Shown: positions 801-51,268 of the stretch, one piece after another
Numbering within the stretch: the stretch's first letter is position 1
How the letters are laid out: each line of letters begins with the position of its first letter
IMG/VR virus record: IMGVR_UViG_3300037067_022550
From: a virus
Strand: one strand, 5' to 3'
Length of the DNA stretch: 64,000 nt
Program-made: the position numbers and the translations under genes
The notes under the pieces: generated by a model
The model's database searches: none
What the model was told of the DNA's origin: nothing
The model's input: only the letters and a program-made list of their open reading frames with translations

Positions 801-1391
801 ATGCCATCAGGATACACAGCAGAAATAGAAAAAGGAATTAGTTTTGAAAGATTTGCCCTTAATTGTTCAAGAGCTTTTGGTGCTTTAATTTCAATGAGGG
901 ATGATCCTATGGATACTCCCATTCCAGACAAAATAGAACCAAGTGATTATCATTTTAAAGAATGGCAAAGAGCCAGAAAAGATTACGAATTGGCAAAAAA
1001 AATTACTTTAAAAAATGCAAAAGAATTAGCAAAAAATGATTATGAAAATGCAGTAAAATACAACAAGAAAAGCATTGCTGAAAAAAATGCTTTAAAAATT
1101 AAATATGAACAAATGCTTTCTAAAGTAATGAAATGGGTTCCTCCTTCAAAAGATCATGTTGCTTTTAAAGATTTTATGATAGACCAAATAAAAAAGTCAA
1201 TAGATTGGGATTGTGATACTAAATACAATAAAGATCCAGTATTGAAGTCTGCAAAAGAATGGCTTAAAGAAAAAATAGAAAGAAATAAAAATGATATAGA
1301 ATACCATTTTAAAAATCACAAAGAAGAATTAGAAAGATGTGCTAATAGAACAAAATGGATCCAAGATTTAAAAAATTCATTGAATGTTTAA
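801..1391 (+). CDS. hypothetical Lys-rich protein, first gene of the + strand operon
   Basis: Strong SD AAAGGAGAAAAGTT before the ATG. 196 aa with no motif recognised. Confidence 0.5.
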   Translation: MPSGYTAEIEKGISFERFALNCSRAFGALISMRDDPMDTPIPDKIEPSDYHFKEWQRARKDYELAKKITLKNAKELAKNDYENAVKYNKKSIAEKNALKIKYEQMLSKVMKWVPPSKDHVAFKDFMIDQIKKSIDWDCDTKYNKDPVLKSAKEWLKEKIERNKNDIEYHFKNHKEELERCANRTKWIQDLKNSLNV

Positions 1392-1422
1392 TAAATTAAA
1401 ACACAATAAATTGAGATATAAA

Positions 1423-2100
1423 ATGAAACCAACATTTTTGCTTACCAGTGGAGGAACTAAAGTCAAGATTGATATGGTGAGATCAATAACTAATATGTCT
1501 AATGGAACATTTGGCAGTAGAATTGCAGAGCATATTTTATTTTATGGCTATAAATTATCTTTTTTACATGCAAAATATTCAAAAACTCCAGAAAGATTGA
1601 TTGGAGGAGCTGCACTGTCAGAAAATTATGTTCCTTTGGATTTTGTTACATTTGAAGACTATGAAAAGAGTTTAAACGAAGAGCTAAAAAAGAAACCGGA
1701 CATCATTATTCTTGCAGCTGCTGTTTCAGATTATGGTGTTGAAAACTATATTGACGGTAAAATTCGTTCAAATGATGCATTGGTCATTAGATTAAAACCT
1801 TTACCAAAATTAATTAGTCAAGTCAGGGAGAAATGCCCTTCTTCCATTATTTGTGGTTTTAAACTTTTAGTTAATTCCACTGAAAAAGAGCTGAGAGAAG
1901 CTGCTATTGAATCTCTATTAAAAAATAAACTTGATTTAGTTGTTGGGAATGATCTAAGAGACATTAAAGCAGGAAAACACAAATTGTTAATAGTTGAAAA
2001 TAAAAGCGATAGTGTTGTTTCTACTACATATGAAAAATATTTACCAGAAGTAGTACTAGATAAATGCATGGAACATTGGCAATTAGGAGTATTGAGGTGA
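1423..2100 (+). CDS. coaB: phosphopantothenate--cysteine ligase (CoaB domain protein)
   Basis: LLTSGGTKVKIDMVRSITNMSNGTFGSRIAE and ILAAAVSDY match the CoaB nucleotide-binding motifs. Start chosen at MKPTF (nt 1423) rather than the ORF-track start at 1384. Confidence 0.7.
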   Translation: MKPTFLLTSGGTKVKIDMVRSITNMSNGTFGSRIAEHILFYGYKLSFLHAKYSKTPERLIGGAALSENYVPLDFVTFEDYEKSLNEELKKKPDIIILAAAVSDYGVENYIDGKIRSNDALVIRLKPLPKLISQVREKCPSSIICGFKLLVNSTEKELREAAIESLLKNKLDLVVGNDLRDIKAGKHKLLIVENKSDSVVSTTYEKYLPEVVLDKCMEHWQLGVLR

Positions 2101-2750
2101 AAAAAAATTTACTAATTGGTTTTACTGGAAGTGTTGCTTCAATCTTATATGAAAAGATTTGCAAGTCTTTTTATAAAGAATATAATGTTAAGGTTGTAAT
2201 GACAGAATCATCTAGACAATTTGTAAATGATACTGTTTTAAATGATATGGAAATAAAAGTTTTTTCAGATTATGACGAATTTTATGAACCTATTAATTTT
2301 GTTAATTCAACAGAAATGGTATTGAGATTAGATAATAAAAATGGAAGATACTGTAACAAAAATGACCCCATTCTACATATTCAACTTAGAGATTGGGCTG
2401 ACTGTTTACTAATTGCTCCTTGTTCTGCTAATACATTGGCTAAAATTTCCAATGGCATTTGTGATAATTTGCTTACATCAATTGTAAGAGCATGGGATTT
2501 CTCACTTAAAAAACAATTGCCTTGTAATAGTAATAAAAAAATTATTATTGCACCAGCTGCAAATTGTAAAATGTGGTGTCATCCAATTACACAAGAACAT
2601 ATTGATAAAATTGGGAAATGGGGAATTTGTGTTATTGATCCTGTTGAAAAGAAGCTAGCTTGTGGAGAAACTGGAATTGGGGCCATGGCAGACATTAGCA
2701 CAATTGTTCATACTGTTAAACAATATTTTTCTAATGAAACGGAACAATAA
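2097..2750 (+). CDS. coaC: phosphopantothenoylcysteine decarboxylase flavoprotein (CoaC / HFCD family)
   Basis: LLIGFTGSVASI, IAPCSANTLAKISNGICDNLLTS, IIIAPAAN and ACGETGIGAM motifs. AGGAG lies 7 nt before a GTG start at 2097, which overlaps the coaB stop as GTGA. Confidence 0.7.
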   Translation: MKKNLLIGFTGSVASILYEKICKSFYKEYNVKVVMTESSRQFVNDTVLNDMEIKVFSDYDEFYEPINFVNSTEMVLRLDNKNGRYCNKNDPILHIQLRDWADCLLIAPCSANTLAKISNGICDNLLTSIVRAWDFSLKKQLPCNSNKKIIIAPAANCKMWCHPITQEHIDKIGKWGICVIDPVEKKLACGETGIGAMADISTIVHTVKQYFSNETEQ

Positions 2751-2753
2751 AAA

Positions 2754-3785
2754 ATGTCAACAATTAAAATATATGATTGTTCTAATTCTGAAGAGAGACC
2801 CATTCATAGAAAATCAAGTCTTTGCCCTTTTATGAATGATATTTGCAGTGATTTAATGGAATATGTTGCCAAAGAAAAATCAGAACAATTTGAATATGTT
2901 ATAGATCCTGTAGATGCCGATGTTATATTTACTAATGATGTTTATCCCCAAAGCATACTTGATTTAGGAAAACCTACGGTTAAAAGAATGGATGGAGTTT
3001 TTTGGCAAAAAGAATTTCAAGACAGAAATAAAAAATATTTACAAGCTGCATATAACTCTTCTAAAATTATTTTTATTTCTAAATATAGTCAAGAATGTTT
3101 TTATAATTTATACCATTGTTTATATAATTTATACCCATTTTGTGATTTTAAAAGTAAATCCAAGGTAATTCTTAATGATGCTCCAGAAGACATATTTTAT
3201 CCACGTTGGGGTAGATTTTGTCTGCCAAAACCAATACACCAAATTACCTTTGCAGCTTGTGTTTCAAATTGGGAAAGAAAAGAAAAGAGATTTAATGATT
3301 TAATTAAGTTTGCAAAAATATGTTCAAATATAAAAGATATAGACATTTATATTAAATTAATTGGGGAATGTAGCCATAAATTACCTTCAAATGTATGGGC
3401 TAATGGATATTGCGAAAACAGAAAAGATATTGCAGACATATTAAGAGTTTCAGATGCTTTTATAAATTTATCTTTTAAAGATGCTGCCCCAAAAACAGTT
3501 TGTCAAGCGATTAGATGCGGATTGCCAGTACTCTATGCCAATTCAGGTGGAGTTGGAGAAATTGTTGGAGAATATGGAGTGCCAATATTTGATAATGAAA
3601 AAGAATTTCAAGCAGTTTATGAATTAAAAGAAAAAGATATTTATTTGTCATTAAATAGTTTTATAGAAAAAATATATGTTCTTCAAGAATCTTTACTTGT
3701 CAAACAAGATCCTTTTCAAAAAGAATTTATTTCTTACAAAAAAACACTTGACAATTACCTATCTGTTTTTTCAGAAGTGGCTTGA
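2754..3785 (+). CDS. glycosyltransferase (GT4-like C-terminal motif)
   Basis: The C-terminal CGLPVLYANSGGVGEIVGEYGVPIFD resembles the GT-B group-1 donor-binding motif. The rest is not recognised. Confidence 0.4.
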   Translation: MSTIKIYDCSNSEERPIHRKSSLCPFMNDICSDLMEYVAKEKSEQFEYVIDPVDADVIFTNDVYPQSILDLGKPTVKRMDGVFWQKEFQDRNKKYLQAAYNSSKIIFISKYSQECFYNLYHCLYNLYPFCDFKSKSKVILNDAPEDIFYPRWGRFCLPKPIHQITFAACVSNWERKEKRFNDLIKFAKICSNIKDIDIYIKLIGECSHKLPSNVWANGYCENRKDIADILRVSDAFINLSFKDAAPKTVCQAIRCGLPVLYANSGGVGEIVGEYGVPIFDNEKEFQAVYELKEKDIYLSLNSFIEKIYVLQESLLVKQDPFQKEFISYKKTLDNYLSVFSEVA

Positions 3786-7546: not shown

Positions 7547-8056
7547 TTGTATAATAATTTAAAGAAAGGAAAGGTAATTATGAAATTTCAATGGGGATGG
7601 TGTGATTTATGTGATTCTTCATTTGTTTATTGCCCTAAATGCGGCAATAATTGTTGCAGTGGTACATATGGGAAAATTAATGATCAAACATGCGATGTTT
7701 GCGAACTAGCTTATCAATATCAACATTTGGCTATGGAAACAAAAACAGAACCAAGTAAGGAATATGTTGAAAAAAACCCCCCATCAAAAATACCCCATTG
7801 GTTTTATGCAGAATGCAAAACAATTTCAAAAATATTAGATATGCCTAAAGAAGAAAAACTAAAGCATATTAAAGAACACCCAGAAGAACACAAACATTGC
7901 TATAATGAATTAATATGCTGTTGTTTTATAGATGAAAAAGTAGATGATGAATTAATAGAAGCTCATAATAATATTCCGGAATATAATGTTCCAAAAAAAT
8001 ACTTAGAAGAAATAGAACTACTTGATAGGATTTTTTCGAACGGCGAAAAACACTAA
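7547..8056 (+). CDS. hypothetical Cys-rich (Zn-binding) protein
   Basis: SD AAAGGAAAGG upstream. Multiple CxxC pairs (CDLCD, CPKCG, CDVCE). Confidence 0.4.
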   Translation: MYNNLKKGKVIMKFQWGWCDLCDSSFVYCPKCGNNCCSGTYGKINDQTCDVCELAYQYQHLAMETKTEPSKEYVEKNPPSKIPHWFYAECKTISKILDMPKEEKLKHIKEHPEEHKHCYNELICCCFIDEKVDDELIEAHNNIPEYNVPKKYLEEIELLDRIFSNGEKH

Positions 8057-9196: not shown

Positions 9197-11914
9197 CTAT
9201 AATCTCCAATAAACAAAACCGTTTTTAATGCACTCTTCTTTATCATAGAGACCTTTTATATCTATAATAATAGGAGGATGAGAAGACATTTCTTTGAGTT
9301 TGTTTAATGGATATTTTTCTTTAAACATGTTGTGCTTAACAGCCACAATAATAGCTTCATAGGGCTTATTTAAACACAAATCATTATAATTTATAAGTGG
9401 GATATTATATTCTTTATATACTCTATTTATATCTGCTTTGGGATCATAAACAAATGGATTGGTATGATATTTTTTTAATTCTTTGTAAATATCCCCAATT
9501 CTTGAATTTCTTATATCACTTATATTTTCCTTAAAAGTAATGCCCATAATAAGAATATTAGCACCATTAATTTTTTTACCTAATTCTATTAATTTTTTAA
9601 TAGTATTTTCTGCTATATATTTTCCCATATTATCATTTGTTCTTCTACCAGACAAAATTACTTCTGGATGATAGCCCAATATTTCTGCTTTATAAGTAAG
9701 ATAATATGGATCAACGCCGATACAATTGTGAGAAATTATTCCAAAATCCGTAACAATAGTTTTTGTTTTTTCAACTTCTATGGAAAAAACTTCTTGCTCA
9801 TTATTTTCAATAAAAACTTCTTTTACTGGAACTAACCATAATCCATCTGAAAATTCATATTTAATAAGTGGATTTCTTCTGCAATTATTTATATGATTAC
9901 CTATCTTTAAATAATTTTTATCACCCAAAAGTGGAGATATTTTAGATAATATTTTCTGACCACCCAGCAAAGTCAAATGATTTACTTTCGGATTAACTTT
10001 ATTAATATAGGTAGAATAGTGTATTCCATTACTAAGCAATATATAGCAGATTTGGTTAAACATAACTTTACTAGAAGAACTAAAAGTCATTACACAACAA
10101 TTAAAATTATCTCTATTATCTTGCTTTAAACTACCGTCACCTCTAAAAATTCCTGACAAAATAGATAAACATAACTTTTTGTTGTATAAAATGAGAGATG
10201 GAATATTTTTTTCATAACAATTACTTCCACATTTAAAAACTTCTTTAATTAAAAATCCCAATATATTAGAAGAAATTTTAACCTGAATGCAATGGTCTTT
10301 CTTATTATGCCAAATTGAATAAGATATTCCTAATTTTTTAGCAATAGATATTACATCATCAATATATTGCCGTTCGTTTTCATTAAAAGTAAATCTAGTT
10401 CTTATAGAGTTATCTTTTGAAATACATCCCTCTGACAAATAATATCCTATAAATCTGGAAAAATATTCATCAATTTCAATAATATTAGAAATTTTATTAA
10501 AAGACGGGCCTTTGCCTGTAACTAAATAAATATTATCTCTAGAAACTGGCATACTTTTGTTTTTTTCTAGTTCTATAAAAACTTTAAGCGGAAGATAATC
10601 CCATTTAAAATAATTGTCTGGTTTTATTGTTTTTGATTTTTTTAATCCAAATATTTTTTTATAATCTATCCACTTCCCACTTTTTAATTTAACTCTTGTT
10701 TTTGAAATGAGACTATCGGGAATAACATTAATTAAATCAATGTTTGTTGATGTTTGTTCTTGTGGTAAATCCTCATTATAAAATAAGGGTATTTTATCGC
10801 CGACAGCAATATTTTTAGCATGTTTAACTATTAACTTTTCGTTTTCAAAAACAAGTAAGGGATGTTTGTCAGTTACAGATATTTTATGGTTTTTTTCGGT
10901 TGTTACAGTAACTATTTTGTCATAGGTAGCTTTTGAGCATCCAGAAATTTTACTAAATAATAATTTTCGCGAATCAACATCAAAAGAAAGAATTTCATCA
11001 GAATTTTCTTTTTCAAATCCATTGACATATTCTTTAATGGTTTGAGTTTTAATGATATTATTTTTTCTAATAGTAATGAGATGATTTTTAGTAAAGCAAT
11101 GGCCTCCTACAAGCCCAGGTTCATATTTGTGGAAATTCCATTTTGTTCCAGCAGCAGCTAAAACATCTTGGGTGTCTATGTTCATCTTGTGAAAAATCAA
11201 AGCTAATTCATTTACAAGAGCAATGTTTAAATCCCTTTGTACGTTTTCTATAACTTTAGCAGCTTCTGCTGTCCTGATATTTGGAGCCATATGTATTTTT
11301 GCTTCAATTACACTACCATATAAATCATAAATAAACTTTGCTGTTTCTTCATCATCTCCAGAAACTATTTTATTTGTATTTTTAACACAATGAACTTTAT
11401 CGCCAGGATTTATTCTTTCTGGAGAATATCCTACATGAAAATCTTTTTTCCAAACATAGTTTTCTTTAGAAAGTAAGGGGACACATATTTCTTCTGTTAC
11501 GCCAGGATAGACGGTAGATTCATAGATCACCAATATTTTCTTTTTTGTTTCAGAATAATTAAAAGTAGAAATAGTTTTTGTAGCAGATATAATTGGGGTT
11601 AAATCTGGTTGTTTATCTTCATGAATGGGAGTAGGAACAGTAACAATAAAGACATCCATATTTCTTAACATAGCAATGTCTTCTAATGAGATATATTTAA
11701 TGTATGATGCTTGTAATTCTTGTATGGAAACATCTTCATTTCTATCATAATTATTTTTTAATTCTTCAATTCTTTCCTTATAATTATCAAAACCATAAAC
11801 ATTATATTTTTTAGAAAACAAAATTGCTAATGGCAACCCTACATACCCAAGTCCCACGATGCAAATATTTTTTGTTCCAGATCCAATCAAAAAATCAGAA
11901 ATATTATAATTCAT
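9197..11914 (-). CDS. UDP-N-acetyl-D-mannosamine / UDP-sugar 6-dehydrogenase (WecC/TviB-like) interrupted by a 458-aa intein
   Basis: N-terminal Rossmann motif GLGYVGLP. N-extein ends ...LVGGH and C-extein begins CIGVDPYYL, restoring the GGHCIGVDPYY active site. Exteins are 272 + 175 aa. Confidence 0.7.
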   Translation of the reverse strand: MNYNISDFLIGSGTKNICIVGLGYVGLPLAILFSKKYNVYGFDNYKERIEELKNNYDRNEDVSIQELQASYIKYISLEDIAMLRNMDVFIVTVPTPIHEDKQPDLTPIISATKTISTFNYSETKKKILVIYESTVYPGVTEEICVPLLSKENYVWKKDFHVGYSPERINPGDKVHCVKNTNKIVSGDDEETAKFIYDLYGSVIEAKIHMAPNIRTAEAAKVIENVQRDLNIALVNELALIFHKMNIDTQDVLAAAGTKWNFHKYEPGLVGGHCFTKNHLITIRKNNIIKTQTIKEYVNGFEKENSDEILSFDVDSRKLLFSKISGCSKATYDKIVTVTTEKNHKISVTDKHPLLVFENEKLIVKHAKNIAVGDKIPLFYNEDLPQEQTSTNIDLINVIPDSLISKTRVKLKSGKWIDYKKIFGLKKSKTIKPDNYFKWDYLPLKVFIELEKNKSMPVSRDNIYLVTGKGPSFNKISNIIEIDEYFSRFIGYYLSEGCISKDNSIRTRFTFNENERQYIDDVISIAKKLGISYSIWHNKKDHCIQVKISSNILGFLIKEVFKCGSNCYEKNIPSLILYNKKLCLSILSGIFRGDGSLKQDNRDNFNCCVMTFSSSSKVMFNQICYILLSNGIHYSTYINKVNPKVNHLTLLGGQKILSKISPLLGDKNYLKIGNHINNCRRNPLIKYEFSDGLWLVPVKEVFIENNEQEVFSIEVEKTKTIVTDFGIISHNCIGVDPYYLTYKAEILGYHPEVILSGRRTNDNMGKYIAENTIKKLIELGKKINGANILIMGITFKENISDIRNSRIGDIYKELKKYHTNPFVYDPKADINRVYKEYNIPLINYNDLCLNKPYEAIIVAVKHNMFKEKYPLNKLKEMSSHPPIIIDIKGLYDKEECIKNGFVYWRL
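9725..11098 (-). mobile_element. intein with LAGLIDADG homing endonuclease domain, inserted at the catalytic Cys of the dehydrogenase
   Basis: Begins with Cys (CFTKNH), ends HN, followed by the +1 Cys. LAGLIDADG-like blocks FIGYYLSEGCISKD and LSGIFRGDGSLKQ. Boundaries computed from codon positions. Confidence 0.7.
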
Positions 11915-24557: not shown

Positions 24558-25667
24558 ATGTCACTTCAAACTAGAGCAACAGCATTACAAGGAGAATATG
24601 TTAGGCTTTATTGTAGATTTATTCAGGATGGCATTTTAACAGATCCTTTTGCTGCACCAGAAGTTTATATAACAGATAACGGCTATTATCCGGATTCTGT
24701 TTCTTCATCTGAATCTTCTTCCTATAGCTACTCACTATCAGTTTCATCAGAAAGTTCATCTGAATCTGGAATTTATTATGGACCATTTACTGCACAAAAA
24801 GAACATACAGGACTTTGGTATATAGATTGGTTAGTTCCTGATAGTTTGCCTATTGGTAAATATTTTGATGTATGGAAATTTAAATGGTCAATAGATACAA
24901 GTATTAATAAAACAGAAATATTTGAATTAGTAGTAAATAAAATGGATCAACTTGTTAATTCTGTTAGCCCTGCAGAAACTTTCAATGTTGGGGATAATGT
25001 TTACGGTATGATGAACGATCTATCAAATAATTTCATCTATGAAGCCATGCATATACCTATATATTGGGAACAAGGTTATAAATCTAATGATAAAAAAACA
25101 ATTAACTTTGCCTTTGGTAATTGGAATCACGATCCCAGACCTATAATTAGAGTAAATCAAAAAATTCGTCCAGACGGTTGGCAACCCAATTATAATGGCA
25201 ATATTTATTTTAACCAAAGTTTAGATCCGGAAGATATGGTCTATGCTCAATATAATTTTAAATATTTTAGTAAAGAAGAAATAATGGATTTTCTTAATAT
25301 GGGTTTATATGCCATGAATGCTACACCTCCAGCTAGCCTAACTTATAATAGTATTAATAGTTCTCCTTTTGCTTGGAGATTTGGGATTATTTTATATGCT
25401 GCTATTAAAGCTATTCAAAGATTGGTGTTCGGATTAAATTTCCAAGAAAGAGCTTTAATATTTGCAGAAAAACCAGAAAATGTACAAGCTGCCATTAATA
25501 ACTTTAAGGCACTTTATGCAGATTATAATACTTTGTGGATTGAAGTTAAAAAAGAAGTTAAGACCTTGAAGTTGCCTAGTATCGGACAAATTTCTGTTCC
25601 TGAATATACGTTACCAGGTGGCAGAAGTCGTTGGTTTCGTTATCTTTACAAAAATGGATCTGGTTAA
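24558..25667 (+). CDS. hypothetical protein with Ser-rich low-complexity segment
   Basis: 369 aa. Low-complexity stretch SVSSSESSSYSYSLSVSSESSSESG. Confidence 0.45.
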   Translation: MSLQTRATALQGEYVRLYCRFIQDGILTDPFAAPEVYITDNGYYPDSVSSSESSSYSYSLSVSSESSSESGIYYGPFTAQKEHTGLWYIDWLVPDSLPIGKYFDVWKFKWSIDTSINKTEIFELVVNKMDQLVNSVSPAETFNVGDNVYGMMNDLSNNFIYEAMHIPIYWEQGYKSNDKKTINFAFGNWNHDPRPIIRVNQKIRPDGWQPNYNGNIYFNQSLDPEDMVYAQYNFKYFSKEEIMDFLNMGLYAMNATPPASLTYNSINSSPFAWRFGIILYAAIKAIQRLVFGLNFQERALIFAEKPENVQAAINNFKALYADYNTLWIEVKKEVKTLKLPSIGQISVPEYTLPGGRSRWFRYLYKNGSG

Positions 25668-26794
25668 GATAGTTGATGTTTCTCTTTATATCTTTTTAAT
25701 ATTAATTCTTTGTTTAAATTTAATATTGCATTTTTGTGTTTTAAATACTCTTGTTCATCAAACTTGTATAAAAGTTCTTTTATCGCAAATTTTTTAGTTA
25801 TTTTTAATAATTCTGATGAAGATTTAAAATCAAATATTATCCTAGGTTTTAGTTTTAACGCAGGACATCTAAATCTTACTTCTGCTGTTAATCCAAATTT
25901 TTCATATAATATTGTCTTTAATTTTTTATTTTCTTCTTCGGTAAAAGATTCAGAACACAATTGACATCTTGGAAGAGCATTGTTTAATTTTATTCCGTTT
26001 CTATATCCCCAATCAGTTATCCCATCATCCATAAACCAAATTGCTAAAACAAACTCATTTATATAATCTTCCATATTTTCTGGAACTACCTTTTTTCCGT
26101 TTTTATAAAAAGATTCTTTTAATTCTAAATTTAAACTATGAACTTTACAAACAAGTTGAAAAGTATAAACCCTAGTTCCAGATCTCTTATCATCTCCTAC
26201 GTAATAAGTAAAAGGGTTATTATTCCAAATTTCCTTTAAAAAACTAGCTTTCCACTCTAAATACTCAACTTGTTTTTCAGAATGTTTTTCTCTAAAATTT
26301 CCCCATTTATCTATACAACCATCCCCCAGAAGTGATCCAATAATAACATCCTTGGCTTCTTGAGACAATGGTTTTTCATTAGCAAGTCTTCTTATAAAAG
26401 TAGCTCCTTTTCTCTTAATGCCATAGAAGTCTCTTAAATATGTAATGTGTTCTCTTGGTATATTATATTTTTTTGATATATCATCTAAACTATTTATGGT
26501 TTGGTTATATTCTAATTCAAAAATTTCCTTATTAATAATTGTTGATTGATTTTTTAAAAAGTAATTATAAAAACTAATTAAGTGTTTAGATGTACCTTTT
26601 TTTATTTCTTTTGAAAATCCTCCATTTAATATTTTTTCTTTATATTCTTCAAAAGATATAAATTCTTTTTTTCTATGAGATGGTATTTTTAATCCATGTT
26701 CTTCCTGTTGAATGTGGCATTTATCAATACATTCCACCAATTCTTTTCTTGCCATTTCGTTGCTCACTTTATAAATATTGCTTGTTTTTAACAT
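25664..26794 (-). CDS. free-standing LAGLIDADG homing endonuclease
   Basis: Two LAGLIDADG motifs: IIGSLLGDGCID and LAIWFMDDGITD. Confidence 0.6.
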   Translation of the reverse strand: MLKTSNIYKVSNEMARKELVECIDKCHIQQEEHGLKIPSHRKKEFISFEEYKEKILNGGFSKEIKKGTSKHLISFYNYFLKNQSTIINKEIFELEYNQTINSLDDISKKYNIPREHITYLRDFYGIKRKGATFIRRLANEKPLSQEAKDVIIGSLLGDGCIDKWGNFREKHSEKQVEYLEWKASFLKEIWNNNPFTYYVGDDKRSGTRVYTFQLVCKVHSLNLELKESFYKNGKKVVPENMEDYINEFVLAIWFMDDGITDWGYRNGIKLNNALPRCQLCSESFTEEENKKLKTILYEKFGLTAEVRFRCPALKLKPRIIFDFKSSSELLKITKKFAIKELLYKFDEQEYLKHKNAILNLNKELILKRYKEKHQLS

Positions 26795-35925: not shown

Positions 35926-36573
35926 TTATTTGAAAATATTCAATTGTGACAACAATCCCATAGCTATCATAAGCTTTCCGTCTATTGGTTTTGTATCCGA
36001 AACCATATTAGCAATCCCTTCTTTTCCCAACCATTCTAACTGTATTCTTTCTTCATCATCACAAGATTGTTTTCCTGGTTCTCCTTCAATCTCTACAAAA
36101 AAATAATGTTGAATTTCATTACTATATCCAGGAGTTGGATATATCAACCCTATTTTTCTAATATTAAAAGCTTCATAACCAGTTTCTTCTTTCAGTTCTC
36201 TTTTTGCTGCATCTATTGCTGATTCTCCTGGATCTATTTTACCAGCTATTGCTTCAAGTAACAGACCTTCTACCGGTTTTCTAAATTGTCTAACACATAA
36301 TATTTTATTGTCTTTTTTTCTTAACGGCAATATAACAACCACTTCTGGAAAATTAACTATTTCCCTAATTGCTTTATTGCCATTATCTAATTCAACTTCG
36401 AGCTTGTCAATCTTTAATAGTTTGCCATCAAATACTCTTTGGGTTGATAATGTTCTTTCCATAAATAATTCTACCTTTCTATGATTTAAGAATTGGATGC
36501 AGTTTAACTTTTCTTGGGTTAAAATACCATTTAATTTGCTATTTTTGCATCTTAGCCCTGCAAGGTTTTCCAA
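35926..36573 (-). CDS. Nudix hydrolase (ADP-ribose pyrophosphatase-like)
   Basis: Nudix box GKIDPGESAIDAAKRELKEETGY. Confidence 0.7.
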   Translation of the reverse strand: MENLAGLRCKNSKLNGILTQEKLNCIQFLNHRKVELFMERTLSTQRVFDGKLLKIDKLEVELDNGNKAIREIVNFPEVVVILPLRKKDNKILCVRQFRKPVEGLLLEAIAGKIDPGESAIDAAKRELKEETGYEAFNIRKIGLIYPTPGYSNEIQHYFFVEIEGEPGKQSCDDEERIQLEWLGKEGIANMVSDTKPIDGKLMIAMGLLSQLNIFK

Positions 36574-37064
36574 ACATCATCACAATAAGCCTTATGCCAG
36601 TAATCGTATGTAGTTTTTTCAAGTTCAAAAAACATAGTATTAGAAATAATATTTTTATAAAATTCTTTAGCTTCCGTTTCTAGTCCAAATAGGCGCAAAC
36701 AGCGAATAATTCTTGTTATACGGAGGAGATTATGATTACCGTTTTTACACCATTCTCTTTGACTGTCTATATTTTCATATTCCCCAATGGCAAAAAATTT
36801 TTCAAAACGATTTTTTGCTAAGCGAAGATTGTCCAAAATTTTAGAATCTTTTTTAGCTTCTTCTGCAATTTCAGGGGTTATGATTGGGTATGTTGAAGCG
36901 TGGCAAGATTCTTCGTGGAGAGGAAAAATTTGTTGTACCTGATCGTGGCAACGTTCCAAAACTTCATCAGAACTATATATAATTTCTTTGAACGTTCTTC
37001 CTCGGTAATCTTTTGTTTTGCCTCTAAGAAAACCAAGAATTTTATTTTTATCAGTAATAATCAT
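36552..37064 (-). CDS. hypothetical protein
   Basis: 170-aa ORF, no confident motif. Confidence 0.4.
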   Translation of the reverse strand: MIITDKNKILGFLRGKTKDYRGRTFKEIIYSSDEVLERCHDQVQQIFPLHEESCHASTYPIITPEIAEEAKKDSKILDNLRLAKNRFEKFFAIGEYENIDSQREWCKNGNHNLLRITRIIRCLRLFGLETEAKEFYKNIISNTMFFELEKTTYDYWHKAYCDDVWKTLQG

Positions 37065-40099: not shown

Positions 40100-41098
40100 T
40101 TAATTTGTTAATTTAACTGCAATTCTAAAAGCTTCTCTTTTAAAGTCTGCTCCTCTTCCAGTCCAAATAGATGCAAACCTTGATGTAGGATTTTTTGTTT
40201 TGGTTTTTGAATATATGCTATAATGATCTGTAAATTCAGTAGCACTATTAAATGCAGCCCAAGCAGAACCTCTAATTCCTGGCAGGGAATTAGATTCAGA
40301 TTCAAATCTAGATAAAATTCCATGCCTAATATTATTGGTTCTAGTGCTTACTTCTTCTTCATCTTTAGCAGGAACAAGTTCTTTAACGTATTCTGTAAGC
40401 CACTCGTCATTGACTTGATATCCTGCAAGTTTATCGTATGCTTGTTGTAATTCGCCATATGTTTTGTCAACAAGTCCTAAAATTTCCTTCGCAGCTTCTA
40501 CTTTGTTATGAACACCTGGCAAATGTTTTATTCTCACAACATTACCACCAGATTGTTCTACTTCAGTATTAGCAGCAGCAAGGGTATTCTCACAAACTAC
40601 ACGTACACCTGTAAAGAACATACGCATAGTACTTTTGCCGTTATGTGAATTAGTTAGCAATAGATATTTTTCAACAATATCATCTGTTTTAAGAATTCTT
40701 ATCTCCCCCGGAATTTTAGCTAACAACCATATCGTTTCGCCTTGCCCAAGAGATCCACAAACTTCATAAATAGCCTTACCTTGACCTACGACGCCATCAA
40801 AGAAGCTAAAGCTGTCAACATTCTGTATGGGAGTATATAGCCGTCCTACGACCCCAATGGCAGCCATAGTGTCCATCCTAACAGTAGCTCTTGTGTCGCA
40901 TATTGGTATAAACTCATTAATTTTGAAATTATCACTAATATCAGGAACACCAGCATAAACAGGAAATGCTTTTACTTCCCAATCTAGTTTAGCTGCCTTA
41001 ATTGCTTCTGCTGCTGTGGCTGGCTTATCAAGTTCCGTACCCATACCGTGCCAAGGTCTTTCCCCATAATAACAAATGCTATTGATATTTGCTGGCAT
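40100..41098 (-). CDS. phage/plasmid-like protein (DUF932 / TIGR03299-like), hypothetical
   Basis: The N-terminus GERPWHGMGTELDKPATAAEAIKAAKLDWEV resembles the conserved DUF932 N-terminus as I remember it. Confidence 0.35.
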   Translation of the reverse strand: MPANINSICYYGERPWHGMGTELDKPATAAEAIKAAKLDWEVKAFPVYAGVPDISDNFKINEFIPICDTRATVRMDTMAAIGVVGRLYTPIQNVDSFSFFDGVVGQGKAIYEVCGSLGQGETIWLLAKIPGEIRILKTDDIVEKYLLLTNSHNGKSTMRMFFTGVRVVCENTLAAANTEVEQSGGNVVRIKHLPGVHNKVEAAKEILGLVDKTYGELQQAYDKLAGYQVNDEWLTEYVKELVPAKDEEEVSTRTNNIRHGILSRFESESNSLPGIRGSAWAAFNSATEFTDHYSIYSKTKTKNPTSRFASIWTGRGADFKREAFRIAVKLTN

Positions 41099-41711: not shown

Positions 41712-41768
41712 TTCAATTTCTCATCTGTATTTTCTGGCATATGCAAATTCTTTTTTATTCATGGAATT

Positions 41769-42113
41769 CTATTTTCTAAAAATATATTGGGCTACATAAT
41801 CCCCAGCTAGCAATGGCTTAAAATATTGAACTTTCCAACCGGCCTCTTTATAAAGAGCTATAATGTCTAAATAAAAATATTTAAAAAGAAATGGTTCGGA
41901 CATTTTGTTTTTTGCAAAATAATATTTAGTTAATTTTTTAACTTCGTTTTCATAAACAACAGCTTTATTGTTACGCCAGCTATTTCTAATCAATTTGTTA
42001 AACACTTGAATAACTTTATTGGGTATATCGTCTTTTATTTCGGATGGTTTAATTGGTTTAACTTTATAGTTTTTTTTCATTTTTTTATCTCCTTTGGCTG
42101 TTTTCTGACGCAA
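41769..42113 (-). CDS. small paralogue family protein, copy 4
   Basis: Shares KPIKPSEI..DIP..VI..FN.LI...W and C-terminal GW.V.Y...FIFRK with the next three genes. Confidence 0.45.
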   Translation of the reverse strand: MRQKTAKGDKKMKKNYKVKPIKPSEIKDDIPNKVIQVFNKLIRNSWRNNKAVVYENEVKKLTKYYFAKNKMSEPFLFKYFYLDIIALYKEAGWKVQYFKPLLAGDYVAQYIFRK

Positions 42114-42165
42114 TTCTATTTCTTTTTTAAATCATAATTAGATTTGAAAATTATTCTTTGTTTTC

Positions 42166-42507
42166 TTATGGATGTTTAAAAACAAATCCTTTTATATTAT
42201 ATTCAACTATCCATCCTGCTTGGCTATAAACACTTTTAACACTCAAAATACAATTGAGACTTAGCTCGCTTAATCCCGAAATAACATATTTACAGTTTAT
42301 TGGGAGAATTACAAGTTCAAATTCTTTTAAAATAATTTGAACGGCTTCTTTTGGAGAAATGATGGATTTGTTGCCATCCCAGTTTCTTTTAATTGCTTCA
42401 TTAAATATTTTTATCATTCTAGGTGGAAGTGTAAAATCTCCGTCGCTCTCACAGGGATTAACCAATTGAATCGGCTCAATTGGTTTAATTGGTTTAATTT
42501 TATTCAT
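42166..42507 (-). CDS. small paralogue family protein, copy 3
   Basis: Has KPIKPIEPI...IFNEAIKRNWDGN...AGWIVEY. Confidence 0.45.
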   Translation of the reverse strand: MNKIKPIKPIEPIQLVNPCESDGDFTLPPRMIKIFNEAIKRNWDGNKSIISPKEAVQIILKEFELVILPINCKYVISGLSELSLNCILSVKSVYSQAGWIVEYNIKGFVFKHP

Positions 42508-42513
42508 GAAATT

Positions 42514-42816
42514 CTATTTTCTAAAAATGAATTTGGCTCTAGTATCGCTAGGTGAAGATTCAATATATGTAACGCTCCATCCATTTTTTTGATAAACATC
42601 TATAATTTGTAAATATAAAAATAAACGAAGTGGTGTGTATGTATTATTTTTTGAAGAATAATAACTATCTAATTTTTTAACTTCATCTTCATAAACCTCA
42701 GCCTCATGGTTTTTCCAGTTTTTTATAATCAATTCGTTAACCGCCCGAATAACTTCATCAGGTAAAATATCATCATCTATTTCGGATGGCTTAATCGGTT
42801 GAATTGTATTTTTCAT
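42514..42816 (-). CDS. small paralogue family protein, copy 2
   Basis: Has IQPIKPSEIDDDILPDEVIRAVNELIIKNW...GWSVTY...FIFRK. Confidence 0.45.
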   Translation of the reverse strand: MKNTIQPIKPSEIDDDILPDEVIRAVNELIIKNWKNHEAEVYEDEVKKLDSYYSSKNNTYTPLRLFLYLQIIDVYQKNGWSVTYIESSPSDTRAKFIFRK

Positions 42817-42820
42817 TTTT

Positions 42821-43195
42821 TTAAGACTTAATTTGGTTTATTGCCCCATCTTTTTTAAAAATAAACATAGCAACAAAATCATCACCAATACCAGGTTTTT
42901 CATAGGTTACATCCCATCCTTCTTTCCCATAAATACTTTCTATATTCAAGTAACCACGATCAAAAATTGAGGATCGCGTTAAGTTTCCTTTCGTTTCTTC
43001 TGAAATATCTAAAATCAATTCTATAACATCATTTTGTGTAAATTCAGATTCATTGCCGTCCCATCGTCTTTTAATTAATTCGTTAAATGCCACAATAACT
43101 TCATCTGGAATTTGCAAACCTACTTCATTAGGGCTAATAGGTTTGTTTTTATTATTAATTACTTGGGCAGCAAGTGTTGAAATATATGTTTTCAT
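42821..43195 (-). CDS. small paralogue family protein, copy 1
   Basis: Has NKPISPNEVGLQIPDEVIVAFNELIKRRWDGN...GWDVTY...FIFKK. Confidence 0.45.
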   Translation of the reverse strand: MKTYISTLAAQVINNKNKPISPNEVGLQIPDEVIVAFNELIKRRWDGNESEFTQNDVIELILDISEETKGNLTRSSIFDRGYLNIESIYGKEGWDVTYEKPGIGDDFVAMFIFKKDGAINQIKS

Positions 43196-44416: not shown

Positions 44417-44641
44417 TTATATTGAAATGGTTTTTCCTTTTGATGGCTGACTAGAAACAATATTAATAATATGTTCCCTAATTTTAGCGTCTAAATGAAA
44501 ATAAACATTTGGATCAACTCTAGTAAAAATATGACTTCTGTTTTTTTTAGCATATTCCAAAATATATCTTCTACACATTGATTTTTTTATCATCGTTTTC
44601 ATTATTTTATCATTCTCATAAATTCTTCTTCTGATATGCAT
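44417..44641 (-). CDS. hypothetical small protein (uncertain)
   Basis: 74-aa ORF overlapping the ligA 3' end. May start at an internal Met. Confidence 0.2.
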   Translation of the reverse strand: MHIRRRIYENDKIMKTMIKKSMCRRYILEYAKKNRSHIFTRVDPNVYFHLDAKIREHIINIVSSQPSKGKTISI

Positions 44642-46584
44642 GTGACTCCAAGGGCAGAAGCCTTATCCATCTTAGAACCGCACTTTTCTCCACAAATAAG
44701 ATAGTTTAATTTGCTTGAAACTGAAGAAGAAAAATTTCCCCCATTTTCTTCAATCATTTCTTGAAATTTGCTTCTTGAACTACTTAATGTTCCAGTAATG
44801 CAAAAGCTTTTACCATTTAGTTTTTTTGACATTGTTTCTTTATCCTTTTTTATTGTTATGTAACTATTCAATAATCTATCTATTTGATCCCTTTGCTTTT
44901 TCCATCCATTGATAAAAGAATTAGCTTTCTTTTCTTTAAATCCATGAATTTTAACTATATCTTCTACTTTTAATTTGTCAATATCTTTAATTGTAGGAGC
45001 TATGGCTGTAATATCTTTACTCATTCTGCCTATCTTGCCTATTCCCAAAGCTTCTATAAAATCTGCTAATGAAAGCTCCTTAACAGAATTAACAGCTTGA
45101 ACAATATTGGCAAAGGCTTTCTTGCCAAAAATCTCATTATACACTGCTGGGCCGTCGGGCTGATATATGTTAGACAGATTGCACAATAAATACATATCTG
45201 CAACATTCCTGAGTGGTATGTAGCCTTCTTTTTCTTCTCCAGATGTTAATTTTTCAATAATTCCTGGACCAATACCAAGAACTCCTATTTTTTTAAACCA
45301 ATGTTCTATGCATCTGTCAACCTGTGCTGGGCAAGCGTCATTATAGCAATGTTTTGTGGTTTCTGTATCATCCCATTCCAATTCTCCTTCACAAGCAGGG
45401 CAAGTATCTGGTATTTCTATTTTTTTCCCCTTGCCCTGTTCTACTACTTCAATTATTTTGGGAATAATATCTCCTGCTTTCTCCAGTACAATTTTGGTGC
45501 CCAAATTGGTAATGCCAAGTCGCGTCATTTCCTTTAAGTTATGGATAGTTGATCTTTGAACTGTTGTACCAGCAATATGAACTGGTTTTAACAATGCTAC
45601 AGGGGTCAAAGAACCTGTGCGACCAATGCTCCATTCTACGCCTTCCAAGATTGTCTCTTTTTTTTCTGTTGGGAATTTTATTGCCCTATTAGCTTTGAGT
45701 CTTTTACCTTCATCTGTTGTACCCATTGACTCTACTAATTCCAGATCATTAATTTTAACAACAATCCCATCAACATCAAAAGGCAAGTCTTCCCTCTTTA
45801 CTTGGTTCATAAATTTATTAATTTCTTTTATGACATCTTCTACTTTCTTGCCTTTACAAACAATCAAACTAGTTTCGTCCCTCAAGGTTTTAAACCCATT
45901 ATATTCAAGAAACTTTGATTTTTCAACTTCTTGTTTAAAGTCTACACCACGAACATCATAGGCTATAAACTCCAATCCTCTGCGTTTTGTTTCTTGTGGA
46001 TCTTTCTGGTTAATAGCTCCTGCAGTAAAATTTCTAGGATTGGCTGGATTCCTTCCGTTGATAAGTTGATTTGCCCAATTTTTATAAAAATCTTGTCTAT
46101 TTTTGAAAACTTCACCCTTAATTTCTACATATCCTTGGCTACTAATTTTTTCTTGAACGTTTTTAATAAAGCGAGCGTTACTTGTATAGTCCAACCCTTC
46201 TACTCCATCTCCACGAGAAACCCCCTGAATAAACTTACCGTCTTGATATTTAAGACAAAAAGAACTTCCGTCAACTTTTAATTCAACAACAAGAATAAGT
46301 TTGTCTAACTTATCACCGAATGTTTTCTCAAACCATTTTGCAAACTCATCTGTGTTTGGATCTTTGTTAAGAGATCCCATAATATATTTGTGTTTAACCC
46401 TAGTACCATAGACAGATTCTTCTATTCCACCAACTTCACTAAAAAAATCATTTGTGGGGTCAAGTTCTTTTAGAGCAGAATATTCCTTGTCATATTCATC
46501 ATCTGTAATAGGAGAAGTTCCATTGGTTTCATACAGTTTGGCACATTTTTTGAGATAATCTATCCTATCTTGAACTGATTTCAT
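44602..46584 (-). CDS. ligA: NAD-dependent DNA ligase
   Basis: Adenylation KxDG motif (ELKVDGSSF). Zn finger CPACEGELEW...C..ACP. C-terminal HhH and BRCT region. 660 aa. Confidence 0.85.
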   Translation of the reverse strand: MKSVQDRIDYLKKCAKLYETNGTSPITDDEYDKEYSALKELDPTNDFFSEVGGIEESVYGTRVKHKYIMGSLNKDPNTDEFAKWFEKTFGDKLDKLILVVELKVDGSSFCLKYQDGKFIQGVSRGDGVEGLDYTSNARFIKNVQEKISSQGYVEIKGEVFKNRQDFYKNWANQLINGRNPANPRNFTAGAINQKDPQETKRRGLEFIAYDVRGVDFKQEVEKSKFLEYNGFKTLRDETSLIVCKGKKVEDVIKEINKFMNQVKREDLPFDVDGIVVKINDLELVESMGTTDEGKRLKANRAIKFPTEKKETILEGVEWSIGRTGSLTPVALLKPVHIAGTTVQRSTIHNLKEMTRLGITNLGTKIVLEKAGDIIPKIIEVVEQGKGKKIEIPDTCPACEGELEWDDTETTKHCYNDACPAQVDRCIEHWFKKIGVLGIGPGIIEKLTSGEEKEGYIPLRNVADMYLLCNLSNIYQPDGPAVYNEIFGKKAFANIVQAVNSVKELSLADFIEALGIGKIGRMSKDITAIAPTIKDIDKLKVEDIVKIHGFKEKKANSFINGWKKQRDQIDRLLNSYITIKKDKETMSKKLNGKSFCITGTLSSSRSKFQEMIEENGGNFSSSVSSKLNYLICGEKCGSKMDKASALGVTCISEEEFMRMIK

Positions 46585-50095: not shown

Positions 50096-51268
50096 TTATT
50101 TTTTTATGATTTCAAGATATAACTGATTAATTGCCTTGTGGTTTACAGTATGAGGAATTTTTGTTGTTTCTTTCAACCTTTTCAATCCTTCCATTTCTTC
50201 TTCAACTATCTTTATTAATGTTTGATAGTCGTATTTTCCTCTCCTAATATCCATCAAGAATTCTCTTTGCTTTCCTTCAAATCTAACAATTGGCTCAGAT
50301 TTTGTCAATATATTTTTTCCAGAATAAAGAAGTCTCATGCAATGCATCATATTTTTACAGTCATAATCAACTACACCTTTTTCTTGAATAATCCATCTTG
50401 CTTCATTTCTATTTTTAACCCAATCCCAATAGTTTTTCCATACTTTGTGAGCTTTTTCAAATTCAGCTTCGCTATATTGTAAAAGACCGACAAATCTATC
50501 TCTTTCGTCGTCAAGCGGAATAGATTCGCAAACCAACATTTGGTCTCCTCTAAAAACCCCCTTGGAAGAATCTCCATAATAATAAAGTCTATAGGTGTTA
50601 GGAATATGTTCCAAAGCAGCAACATGAAATTTAGATAAGTCATATACTTTTGAAAGACGGCAATATTCTATTGGTCTGCATGGAGTGTTCATTATAAATT
50701 TAATCATGTCTAAATCATATATTGTTTCTATATTAGACATATCAGATCTGAACCCGCACTTTCTTGGAGAATAATTTTCCCAAAGAGGCAAAGGAATAAT
50801 GCGACAAAAATCTTCTTTCTTTGGTGGATCTTTTGGACAAGGGTTATTAACTAGTTTATTTTGACCACGACACTTTTCCCACTGAGCATAAGCATATCCG
50901 CTGTGCGTAAAGTAAGCCTTTTGAGAAATAAAAAGATTTCTGTTAGCAATTATCATTTCCATTTCCGGAGTGCATTTCTTAATACATTCTTTTGGTAAAA
51001 ATGCCATTTCTAGAATATTTGGATTCCCATCTTGTATTAGTTTAAAAAACTTTCTAAGTTCATAATATTTAACATCTTGCTTATCATCTGCAACTTCCTC
51101 GGGAGGATCAAACAAAGACATATGCATTTCATTTGGAACCTTAAATACACCCCTAATATCCGTATCAGAAGAATATTCTGGAGTATCAATGGCCAAATTA
51201 TATGCCCTTGATCCTGAAATTGCTTCAAACATAATGTATTTTTGTTCTTTAATGTCTTTAATATTCAC
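50096..51268 (-). CDS. predicted nucleotidyltransferase (pol-beta superfamily, PF10127-like)
   Basis: ISGSRAYNLAIDTPEYSSDTDIRGVF gives the GS...DxD NTase motif. Confidence 0.5.
   Translation of the reverse strand: MNIKDIKEQKYIMFEAISGSRAYNLAIDTPEYSSDTDIRGVFKVPNEMHMSLFDPPEEVADDKQDVKYYELRKFFKLIQDGNPNILEMAFLPKECIKKCTPEMEMIIANRNLFISQKAYFTHSGYAYAQWEKCRGQNKLVNNPCPKDPPKKEDFCRIIPLPLWENYSPRKCGFRSDMSNIETIYDLDMIKFIMNTPCRPIEYCRLSKVYDLSKFHVAALEHIPNTYRLYYYGDSSKGVFRGDQMLVCESIPLDDERDRFVGLLQYSEAEFEKAHKVWKNYWDWVKNRNEARWIIQEKGVVDYDCKNMMHCMRLLYSGKNILTKSEPIVRFEGKQREFLMDIRRGKYDYQTLIKIVEEEMEGLKRLKETTKIPHTVNHKAINQLYLEIIKK

Follow-up and report, generated by a model that had tools for sequence, protein, structure and literature searches.

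What do four small, diverged genes in a row do in a viral genome? We asked this question for positions 41,769 to 43,195 of a 64,000-nucleotide stretch of DNA, called the window here, from the IMG/VR record IMGVR_UViG_3300037067_022550 (source contig, 263,965 bp). An earlier note, made from the sequence alone, had described the locus as a tandem array of paralogues. Our answer is tentative, and we give it a probability of roughly 45%: the array would be a lineage-specific tandem expansion of an unannotated, winged-helix-like protein family tied to the homeostasis of nicotinamide adenine dinucleotide (NAD+) and ADP-ribose, by the mechanism proposed below. It is from genomic context that we infer this function. 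The four genes that the earlier note had listed all exist, and from high to low coordinates we call them c4, c3, c2 and c1:

42821..43195, minus strand: c4, an open reading frame (ORF) of 124 amino acids (aa), isoelectric point (pI) 4.7, net charge -6; the most canonical family member of the array

42514..42816, minus strand: c3, 100 aa, net charge -2; sister of c1, with the degenerate wing YIESSPSDTR

42166..42507, minus strand: c2, 113 aa, net charge +3; the most divergent copy, with the wing loop deleted

41769..42080, minus strand: c1, 103 aa from its ATG, pI 9.9, net charge +13; degenerate wing YFKPLLAGDY

The gaps between these genes are 4, 6 and 85 nt. In its longest form the c1 ORF covers 41769-42113, starting from a TTG at 42113; the ATG at 42080 is the likelier start, because AAAGGAG lies 8 nt upstream of it and because independent gene calling in four further assemblies of this element gives a c1 of 103 aa.

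Are the four copies really related to each other? In BLASTP comparisons with the SEG filter on, c1 and c3 are 48% identical (E = 3e-28), c4 and c1 37% (E = 1e-22), c4 and c3 39% (E = 5e-16), and c2 shares 26-29% with the other three (E from 2e-11 to 3e-7, weakest for c2 and c3). All these alignments span nearly the whole length of the copies. A MAFFT alignment of the four is likewise full-length, with 17 invariant columns that include the N-terminal KPIxPxE, P30, (V/M)Ixx(F/V)NxxI...W and GWxVxY ... F. We also compared the copies with a hidden Markov model (HMM) of the family that was built from 85 outside sequences, array copies excluded, with E-values given for a nominal database of one million. 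All four match this model over their full length, with E-values of 3e-28 (c4), 6.6e-24, 3.4e-16 and 3.1e-10, and none of 800 shuffled copies matched it, even at E = 100. The copies are thus homologous to each other and true members of the family, as the earlier note had held for their paralogy. Its estimate of about 25-35% identity has to be corrected to 26-48%; the C-terminal spacing that it gave, (F/Y)IF(R/K)K, does not apply to c2, which lacks it owing to the deletion of its wing loop and ends in FVFKHP.

To which family do they belong? It is a large family of unnamed, winged-helix-like proteins of about 100 residues, without a name in the databases. Its profile was built on an alignment called A3, and 89 members were used for counts of conservation. 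Neither the four copies nor the 89 members, scanned singly, gave anything above noise in Pfam-A, PHROG or NCBIfam, and the best match of the family profile among PDB sequences had an E-value of 0.32, which is not meaningful. The earlier note could not name the family, and our searches agree with this. An exhaustive profile search of 1.84 billion representatives at 50% identity found 2,897 matches at E <= 1e-3 and 2,274 at E <= 1e-10. A word-indexed search found 1,333 family proteins at E <= 1e-8, none of them with a Pfam domain and all with names that are either "hypothetical" or obviously spurious.

Almost all members have 98-125 aa. The longer ones (174-269 aa) carry heterogeneous N-terminal extensions that match nothing in Pfam, most of them with an internal methionine just before KPIxPxE; they are probably over-long gene calls. 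For this reason domain fusions were set aside as a clue to function, the sole true two-domain protein being P0110, a genuine fusion of two family domains. Three prolines, P19, P22 and P30, do not vary among the four copies, and at least 93% of the 89 members have each of them. The N-terminal KPIxPxE, P30 and the helix 1 motif VxxAFNxLI are present in all four copies. In the wing motif of the family, GWxVxYDKPGYNExYxAxFxF, each of D99, K100, P101, Y103 and E105 is found in at least 91% of members.

The family is found both in phages and in bacteria. Among the 80 loci listed from IMG/VR, 37 are on contigs of at least 100 kb and 17 on contigs of at least 200 kb. Cultured phages with the gene are few (5 of 50,697 records) and all of them are DSS3P8-like roseophages. 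In a collection of species-representative genomes the gene occurs mainly in metagenome-assembled genomes (MAGs) of the Patescibacteria or candidate phyla radiation (CPR), including closed chromosomes of about 1 Mb. Of about 145 loci examined, about 143 have a single copy; tandem copies were found only in the element of the window, with four, and in one further locus (L070), with two.

Next, we asked which genes keep company with the family gene, called X in what follows, and clustered its neighbours in 87 loci. In other phages and in CPR genomes, X adjoins genes of NAD salvage or biosynthesis and NrtR-type regulators. The commonest neighbour families are NAMPT, the most frequent, and NadM-Nudix. 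In the roseophages X lies exactly between a bifunctional NadM-Nudix gene (NMN adenylyltransferase and ADP-ribose pyrophosphatase) and NAMPT, which is followed by a DNA ligase. The order NadM-X-NAMPT is found in L001, L002, L012, L050/51, L076 and L151-153, which represent at least six deeply diverged phage lineages. Within these loci X is 32-49% identical, NAMPT is 27-80% identical and the GC content ranges from 38 to 62%; since all three diverge so widely, the synteny must be old. Other phages carry other routes: X stands directly before PncB-NadE-Nudix in L008 and directly after PncB ... NadE in L154, and it adjoins a NadR-type kinase and NAMPT in L047. Nudix and PARP-like genes lie a few kb from X in L003, L027 and L053. 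As a side observation, L003 has genes for an AAA_28 kinase, a NUDIX protein and a WGR-PARP in a row at 1087-3761, 2-5 kb upstream of X.

The bacterial loci point to regulation. In 19 of the 47 MAG or genome loci with enough upstream sequence, a divergent regulator lies 19-124 bp from X, and it is an NrtR (Nudix plus NrtR_WHD), a protein with a Nudix and a winged helix-turn-helix (wHTH) domain, or a TrmB-type protein. The NrtR homologue of the CPR or MAG divergon matches NrtR_WHD at 5e-17. Six loci are of the NrtR type (L117, L118, L122, L125, L128 and L129), and each of them has a pair of palindromes of 19-21 bp that share a GT-N7-AC core and are spaced by 55 bp, one near -95 and the other near -40 relative to the start codon; TAACGTAAAAATCACGTAT and TAGCGTTATTAATACGTTA are an example, and the pair lies at about positions 7855-7960 of each locus. 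GT-N7-AC is the core consensus of NrtR operators, and ADP-ribose frees NrtR from its operators in vitro (Rodionov et al. 2008, PMC2330246). Judged by their sequence, the boxes upstream of X are putative NrtR-like operators. One of the six, L129, is a closed Woesebacteria chromosome in which the pair of regulator and X is placed among YceG, adenylate kinase and a HAD hydrolase; since these neighbours are housekeeping genes, X is a bona fide cellular gene there and not a remnant of a prophage. Four more cellular loci have NadE and a small adenylyltransferase 1-6 kb from X. That the same gene is chromosomal and under NrtR control in CPR bacteria argues for a general function in NAD homeostasis.

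Some further observations concern these cellular loci. The MAGs with NrtR loci carry the label Woesebacteria or "Gammaproteobacteria/Pseudomonadales"; in the nrtR-X region L118 and L129 hardly differ, which suggests that the gammaproteobacterial labels are mis-assigned. In L107, L119, L121, L123 and L131 the stretch between a TrmB-like regulator and X contains a conserved palindrome, GTGTAyyAnTnTTGnTACAC, as well as a TTTTCTGCAG motif, and the palindrome looks like the likely operator of this uncharacterised regulator. The TrmB-type regulator of L131 is in one operon with a Nudix hydrolase.

What kind of protein does X encode? An AlphaFold2 model of c4, built with an alignment of 89 sequences, has a mean predicted local distance difference test score (pLDDT) of 85.9, with values above 93 for residues 30-115; the N-terminal tail with KPIxPxE is of lower confidence than the rest. 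The model consists of helices at 31-44, 54-67, 74-79 and 86-91 and strands at 49-53, 94-99 and 110-115. It shows the winged-helix succession H1-b1-H2-H3-b2-wing-b3 with a three-stranded sheet, and on this model the fold of the family is predicted to be winged-helix-like. The model of c2 keeps the topology H-b-H-H-b-b at a pLDDT of 74.6, with disordered inserts at residues 12-23 and 71-79 and the wing shrunk to a tight hairpin.

A winged helix naturally raises the question of DNA binding. The four copies could be small winged-helix regulators that read different operators, either timing phage genes or controlling NAD operons. The very basic c1 (+13, pI 9.9) would be the best candidate among the copies, and the divergon of X with another regulator in CPR genomes recalls repressor/Cro pairs. 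However, the family as a whole is mildly acidic (median pI 5.45, net charge -2), and it has conserved acidic residues precisely where a DNA-binding protein would touch its target: D84 and E86 on the last helix, which is the putative recognition helix, and D99 and E105 in the wing. The mean column charges are -0.7, -0.9 and -0.6 at positions 84, 86 and 87 of the helix before the wing and -0.9 and -1.0 at positions 99 and 105 of the wing. The basic or polar recognition helix and basic wing of DNA-binding wHTH factors are not seen in the family, and c1 is the only strongly basic copy. Since the acidic residues sit on the recognition helix and wing, classical DNA binding is unlikely for the canonical family. 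Moreover, the helix before the wing has only about 6 residues in the model, the family has no profile similarity to the adjacent NrtR, TrmB or HTH domains, and many of the top fold matches are winged helices that bind proteins. We therefore regard DNA-binding regulators as quite unlikely. The idea that the family is a detached DNA-binding domain of NrtR or TrmB was tried as well and rejected, as hhalign gave probabilities below 1% against the neighbouring regulators.

The fold matches with protein contacts include Nse1/Nse3 (KITE), the C-terminal winged helix of kleisins, the WHB domain of cullins and MukE/F. With 3-19% identity and Foldseek E-values above 0.02, they give no evidence of specific homology; what sets the family apart from them are its own invariant KPIxPxE and GWxVxYDKPGYNExY and its existence as a stand-alone protein of about 100 aa. 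The canonical surface as modelled, with its acidic residues and the conserved aromatic residues W94, Y98, Y103 and Y107, seems to fit the binding of a protein or a ligand better than the reading of DNA. We infer that the canonical protein is an accessory factor that binds a protein or a small ligand rather than a DNA-binding regulator, and that it is probably a dimer.

How did a gene that is nearly always single come to be present four times? c1 and c3 are most closely related to each other and form a pair of sisters in a neighbour-joining tree; c4 is nearer to members from unrelated contigs (45-48% identity) than to its neighbours in the array. At the level of DNA, c1 and c3 share three repeats, 142 nt long (75%), 53 nt long (77%) and 54 nt long (81%), each offset by the same distance of about 740 nt; in the repeat families D2 and D7, 41753-41806 matches 42498-42551 at 81%, with a 21-nt core at 95%. 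The 54-nt repeat takes in the stop codon and the spacer of 6 nt, together with 10 nt from the start of the gene that follows. Directly after c1 there is a remnant:

41721..41762, minus strand: stub ORF of 13 codons (MNKKEFAYARKYR and a stop codon), which starts like c2

The stub begins like c2 because the last repeat runs past the stop codon into the start of the next gene. The junction of stop, spacer and start, TTTTTAGAAAATAGAATTYCATGAATAAAA, is 95% conserved over 21 nt between c3/c2 and c1/stub, far above the conservation of the coding region, and may be either a scar of the duplication or a conserved element of translational coupling. From the sequence, the stub itself appears to be the scar of an unequal crossing-over that duplicated c3 and the start of c2. 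At least the pair c1 and c3 arose by duplication in situ.

The copies have since diverged. For c1 and c3, the method of Nei and Gojobori (NG86) gives a synonymous rate (dS) of 0.46 and a nonsynonymous rate (dN) of 0.34; their ratio of 0.73 is to be read qualitatively only, as dS is probably underestimated in a genome with 29% GC, and in that sense it indicates relaxed or diversifying evolution. All other pairs are near saturation (dS 0.8-1.3), so that the comparison of dN and dS proposed in the earlier note is usable for c1 and c3 and uninformative for the rest. Its view that the duplications are old and diversifying is borne out by these values together with the spread of net charge from -6 to +13. 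The array is 100% identical in the four other assemblies (five in all); it represents one strain, and these five assemblies offer no usable polymorphism for an analysis of selection.

Divergence is clearest in the wing. Where the family has YDKPGYNExY, c4 reads YEKPGIGDDF, and the erosion of the motif DKPGYNExY goes from partial in c4 over strong in c1 and c3 to complete, by deletion, in c2. None of the copies has the full family motif; GWxVxY and the final F are retained. The hydrophobic core is kept in all four, as are the N-terminal motif and GWxVxY. With their eroded wings, the copies are atypical, derived members of the family. In c2 the N-terminal motif is duplicated (IKPIKPIEPI) and there are two insertions. 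The first 16 codons of c2 also contain a hairpin with a 15-bp stem, AACCAATTGAATCGGCTCAATTGGTTTAATTGGTT, at 42460-42494, created by the duplicated KPIKPIEPIQLV coding repeat; in a scan for promoters and terminators, which has little to tell in DNA so rich in AT, it is listed as terminator-like on the opposite strand, and it could affect the translation of c2.

Are these genes simply falling apart? One may suppose that only c4, or none of the copies, is functional and that c1-c3 drift under relaxed constraint toward loss. The progressive loss of the wing motif up to its deletion in c2, the high ratio of c1 and c3, the disordered insertions of c2 and the 13-codon stub, which shows that partial copies decay here, would all agree with this. 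However, the four ORFs are without exception intact and lie close together, and all retain the hydrophobic core, KPIxPxE and GWxVxY as well as the predicted fold; every copy matches the independent HMM at E of about 3e-10 or below, the ratio is likely inflated by the underestimated dS, and the array is identical in the five assemblies, though of one strain only. Decay of the duplicates appears to us very unlikely.

A comparison with the few other duplicates suggests what the copies might do instead. The tandem pair of L070 (9615-9986 and 10007-10339, on a 476-kb viral contig) and the two halves of P0110 each combine one canonical wing (YDKPGY or YDRPGW) with one degenerate wing. Since such pairs recur independently in L070 and in P0110 and mirror the array of the window, they hint at a dimer, the duplicates of which may evolve into asymmetric heteromers.

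Taken together, the tie to NAD+ and ADP-ribose homeostasis would work as follows. In CPR cells, a build-up of ADP-ribose from the breakdown of NAD+ would release NrtR and so switch on the family gene, the product of which would help to keep or rebuild the NAD+ pool. In phages, the gene would travel with whichever route of NAD+ rebuilding is carried. De-repression by ADP-ribose in cells and the company of differing NAD+ routes in phages suggest a role that is independent of the route: the protein may be a regulator or scaffold of the shared steps, it may guard the pool, or it may deal with ADP-ribose or compounds derived from it. In the probable jumbo phage of the window, where an NAD+-dependent ligase belongs to the same gene block, the gene would have been duplicated at least twice. 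The copies would then have diverged in charge and lost the wing motif to differing degrees, leaving one near-canonical copy, c4, and three derived ones, which may form heteromers or have new partners. The genes of the window that are linked to NAD are these:

44602..46584, minus strand: LigA, NAD+-dependent DNA ligase (Pfam DNA_ligase_aden at 9e-47, OB fold, BRCT), four genes upstream of the array

35926..36573, minus strand: Nudix hydrolase (Pfam NUDIX, precomputed on an identical contig; self-match in phmmer), about 5 kb downstream of the array on the same strand

Several points weigh against the tie to NAD+. The only such links in the window are LigA and a Nudix gene that lies several kb from the array; within these 64 kb we found no homologue of NAMPT, NadM, PncB, NadE or PARP. 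The operon with both NAMPT and NMNAT, typical for the pathway NARP2 and present in L001, L002, L012, L050/51, L076 and L151-153, is likewise absent from the window, and so is the combination of NrtR box and NrtR gene that the six CPR or MAG loci have: the window contains no match to the NrtR-type box at up to 1 mismatch and no NrtR. Furthermore, about 70-85% of the phage loci have no NAD gene within 10 kb of X. NadV is itself common in large phages (22-33%, PMC9503650), and mere proximity is for this reason only modestly enriched. In nine cellular loci the partner of X is an uncharacterised TrmB-type regulator. Finally, the best-conserved motif of the family is incomplete in all copies of the array, which may therefore have ceased to act like canonical members. 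The weight of the NAD link rests on immediate adjacency, on an order conserved across deep divergence and on the evidence from operators, and not on counts of proximity.

Could the array be a weapon rather than a part of metabolism? In an anti-defence repertoire, each paralogue would neutralise a different defence that depletes NAD+ or signals by ADP-ribose, either as an inhibitor of an NADase or as a sponge for the signal, and the array would widen the range. The proteins are small, mostly acidic and enriched in phages, and they are found together with genes of the NARP2 type, which are known counter-defence genes (bioRxiv 10.1101/2024.02.11.579819). The conserved W94, Y98, Y103, Y107, D99 and E105 of the wing could form a nucleotide pocket, the surface charge differs strongly among the paralogues, and the c1-c3 ratio of about 0.7 would suit such a role. 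On the other hand, the same family is single-copy, chromosomal and under NrtR-type control among the housekeeping genes of CPR bacteria; across hosts its surface motif shows high conservation, which sets it apart from inhibitors in an arms race, and arrays are exceptional in the family. A dedicated repertoire is in our opinion rather unlikely. We are similarly doubtful about a mixed form, in which a small dimeric winged-helix protein takes part in an arms race over NAD+ by blocking NAD+ consumers, capturing molecules derived from ADP-ribose or boosting salvage; ADP-ribose would induce it by way of NrtR in CPR bacteria, large phages would carry it together with NARP2-like or PncB/NadE modules, and the array would be a diversified repertoire or a set of heteromers for several targets. 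Still, the recurrent link with NAD+ salvage makes a role in countering the depletion of NAD+ plausible.

Immunity proteins for a polymorphic toxin, or adaptors that interact with receptors, had also been suggested for the array. Tandem, diverged small paralogues are the generic pattern of such systems, and this is the only point in their favour. The genes that flank the array have no match in Pfam or PDB, and there is no toxin, nuclease, tail-fibre or receptor gene nearby. Nor does any toxin or nuclease partner recur beside the family gene in about 145 loci, and the family is almost always single-copy; the marks of polymorphic-toxin immunity, an adjacent toxin and arrays that are common across genomes, are thus missing at these loci. 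The proposed search for cognate toxins or nucleases came out empty in this way, and we consider both suggestions extremely improbable.

What else does the window tell about the element? Its GC content is 29%, and a jumbo phage is its most likely source, with no structural genes seen in the window. The array is part of a tightly packed, co-directional block that runs from LigA (44602-46584) down to a DUF932 gene (40100-41098). Other genes of the window encode topoisomerase IA, DnaN, a radical-SAM enzyme and a dUTPase, and a few of its ORFs match PHROGs of unassigned function. No tRNAs were found in the window, and the region has no nucleotide match to cultured phages. Four further genes can be listed:

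9197-11914, minus strand: UDP-glucose/GDP-mannose dehydrogenase with an intein (Intein_splicing at 6e-16) and its homing endonuclease (LAGLIDADG_3 at 8e-13)

25664-26794: free-standing LAGLIDADG_2 endonuclease

36552-37064, minus strand: OGFr_N-domain protein, adjoining the Nudix gene

50096-51268, minus strand: RlaP-type nucleotidyltransferase (RNA repair pathway, pol-beta family)

The OGFr_N protein and the RlaP-type enzyme suggest a theme of RNA repair or nucleotide modification in this part of the genome.

Why should such a family matter? The reconstitution of NAD+ by phages (NARP1, NARP2, NARP3) is a recently recognised strategy of counter-defence and has been presented as several enzyme pathways of two genes each. 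If the family does modulate the homeostasis of NAD+ or ADP-ribose, the NARP pathways would have an accessory factor that has so far been overlooked, and the bacterial NAD regulons a further member; Ruegeria pomeroyi DSS-3 and its DSS3P8-like phages are a cultured system in which this can be tested. The array would then be a case of such a factor branching out within a giant phage, with a near-canonical copy beside derived ones. The four copies are an unusual elaboration; the NAD context of the family is the core of the story, and it makes the family a candidate for an unrecognised player in the contest between phage and host over NAD+.

How does the family compare with known systems? Tad1 and Tad2 are small phage sponges of counter-defence that act on signals derived from NAD. 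The family resembles them in size, in its enrichment in phages, in its possible oligomeric state and in its NAD-related counter-defence company. However, we found no match to them in sequence or structure, and unlike them the family has chromosomal, regulator-controlled members in bacteria. In relation to NARP2 (NAMPT and NMNAT; Osterman et al. 2024, bioRxiv 10.1101/2024.02.11.579819), X is placed between both enzymes in at least six phage lineages. While NARP2 has been described as a two-gene pathway, X also accompanies PncB and NadE, so it is not specific to the chemistry of NARP2, and the window has neither of the two NARP2 enzymes. The searched parts of the NARP1/2 preprint and of the survey of viral NAD and ADP-ribose systems by Iyer et al. 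2022 do not mention the small protein of this family. As for the NrtR regulon, the layout of nrtR and X in CPR bacteria and MAGs matches the "nrtR<#>target" divergons described there (PMC2330246), with the difference that the divergent target, X, is none of the known NAD enzymes or transporters; the unassigned nrtX/nrtY of that study form a two-gene operon in other phyla. In summary, the fold of the family is of a known kind, and its NAD-linked genomic context is new.

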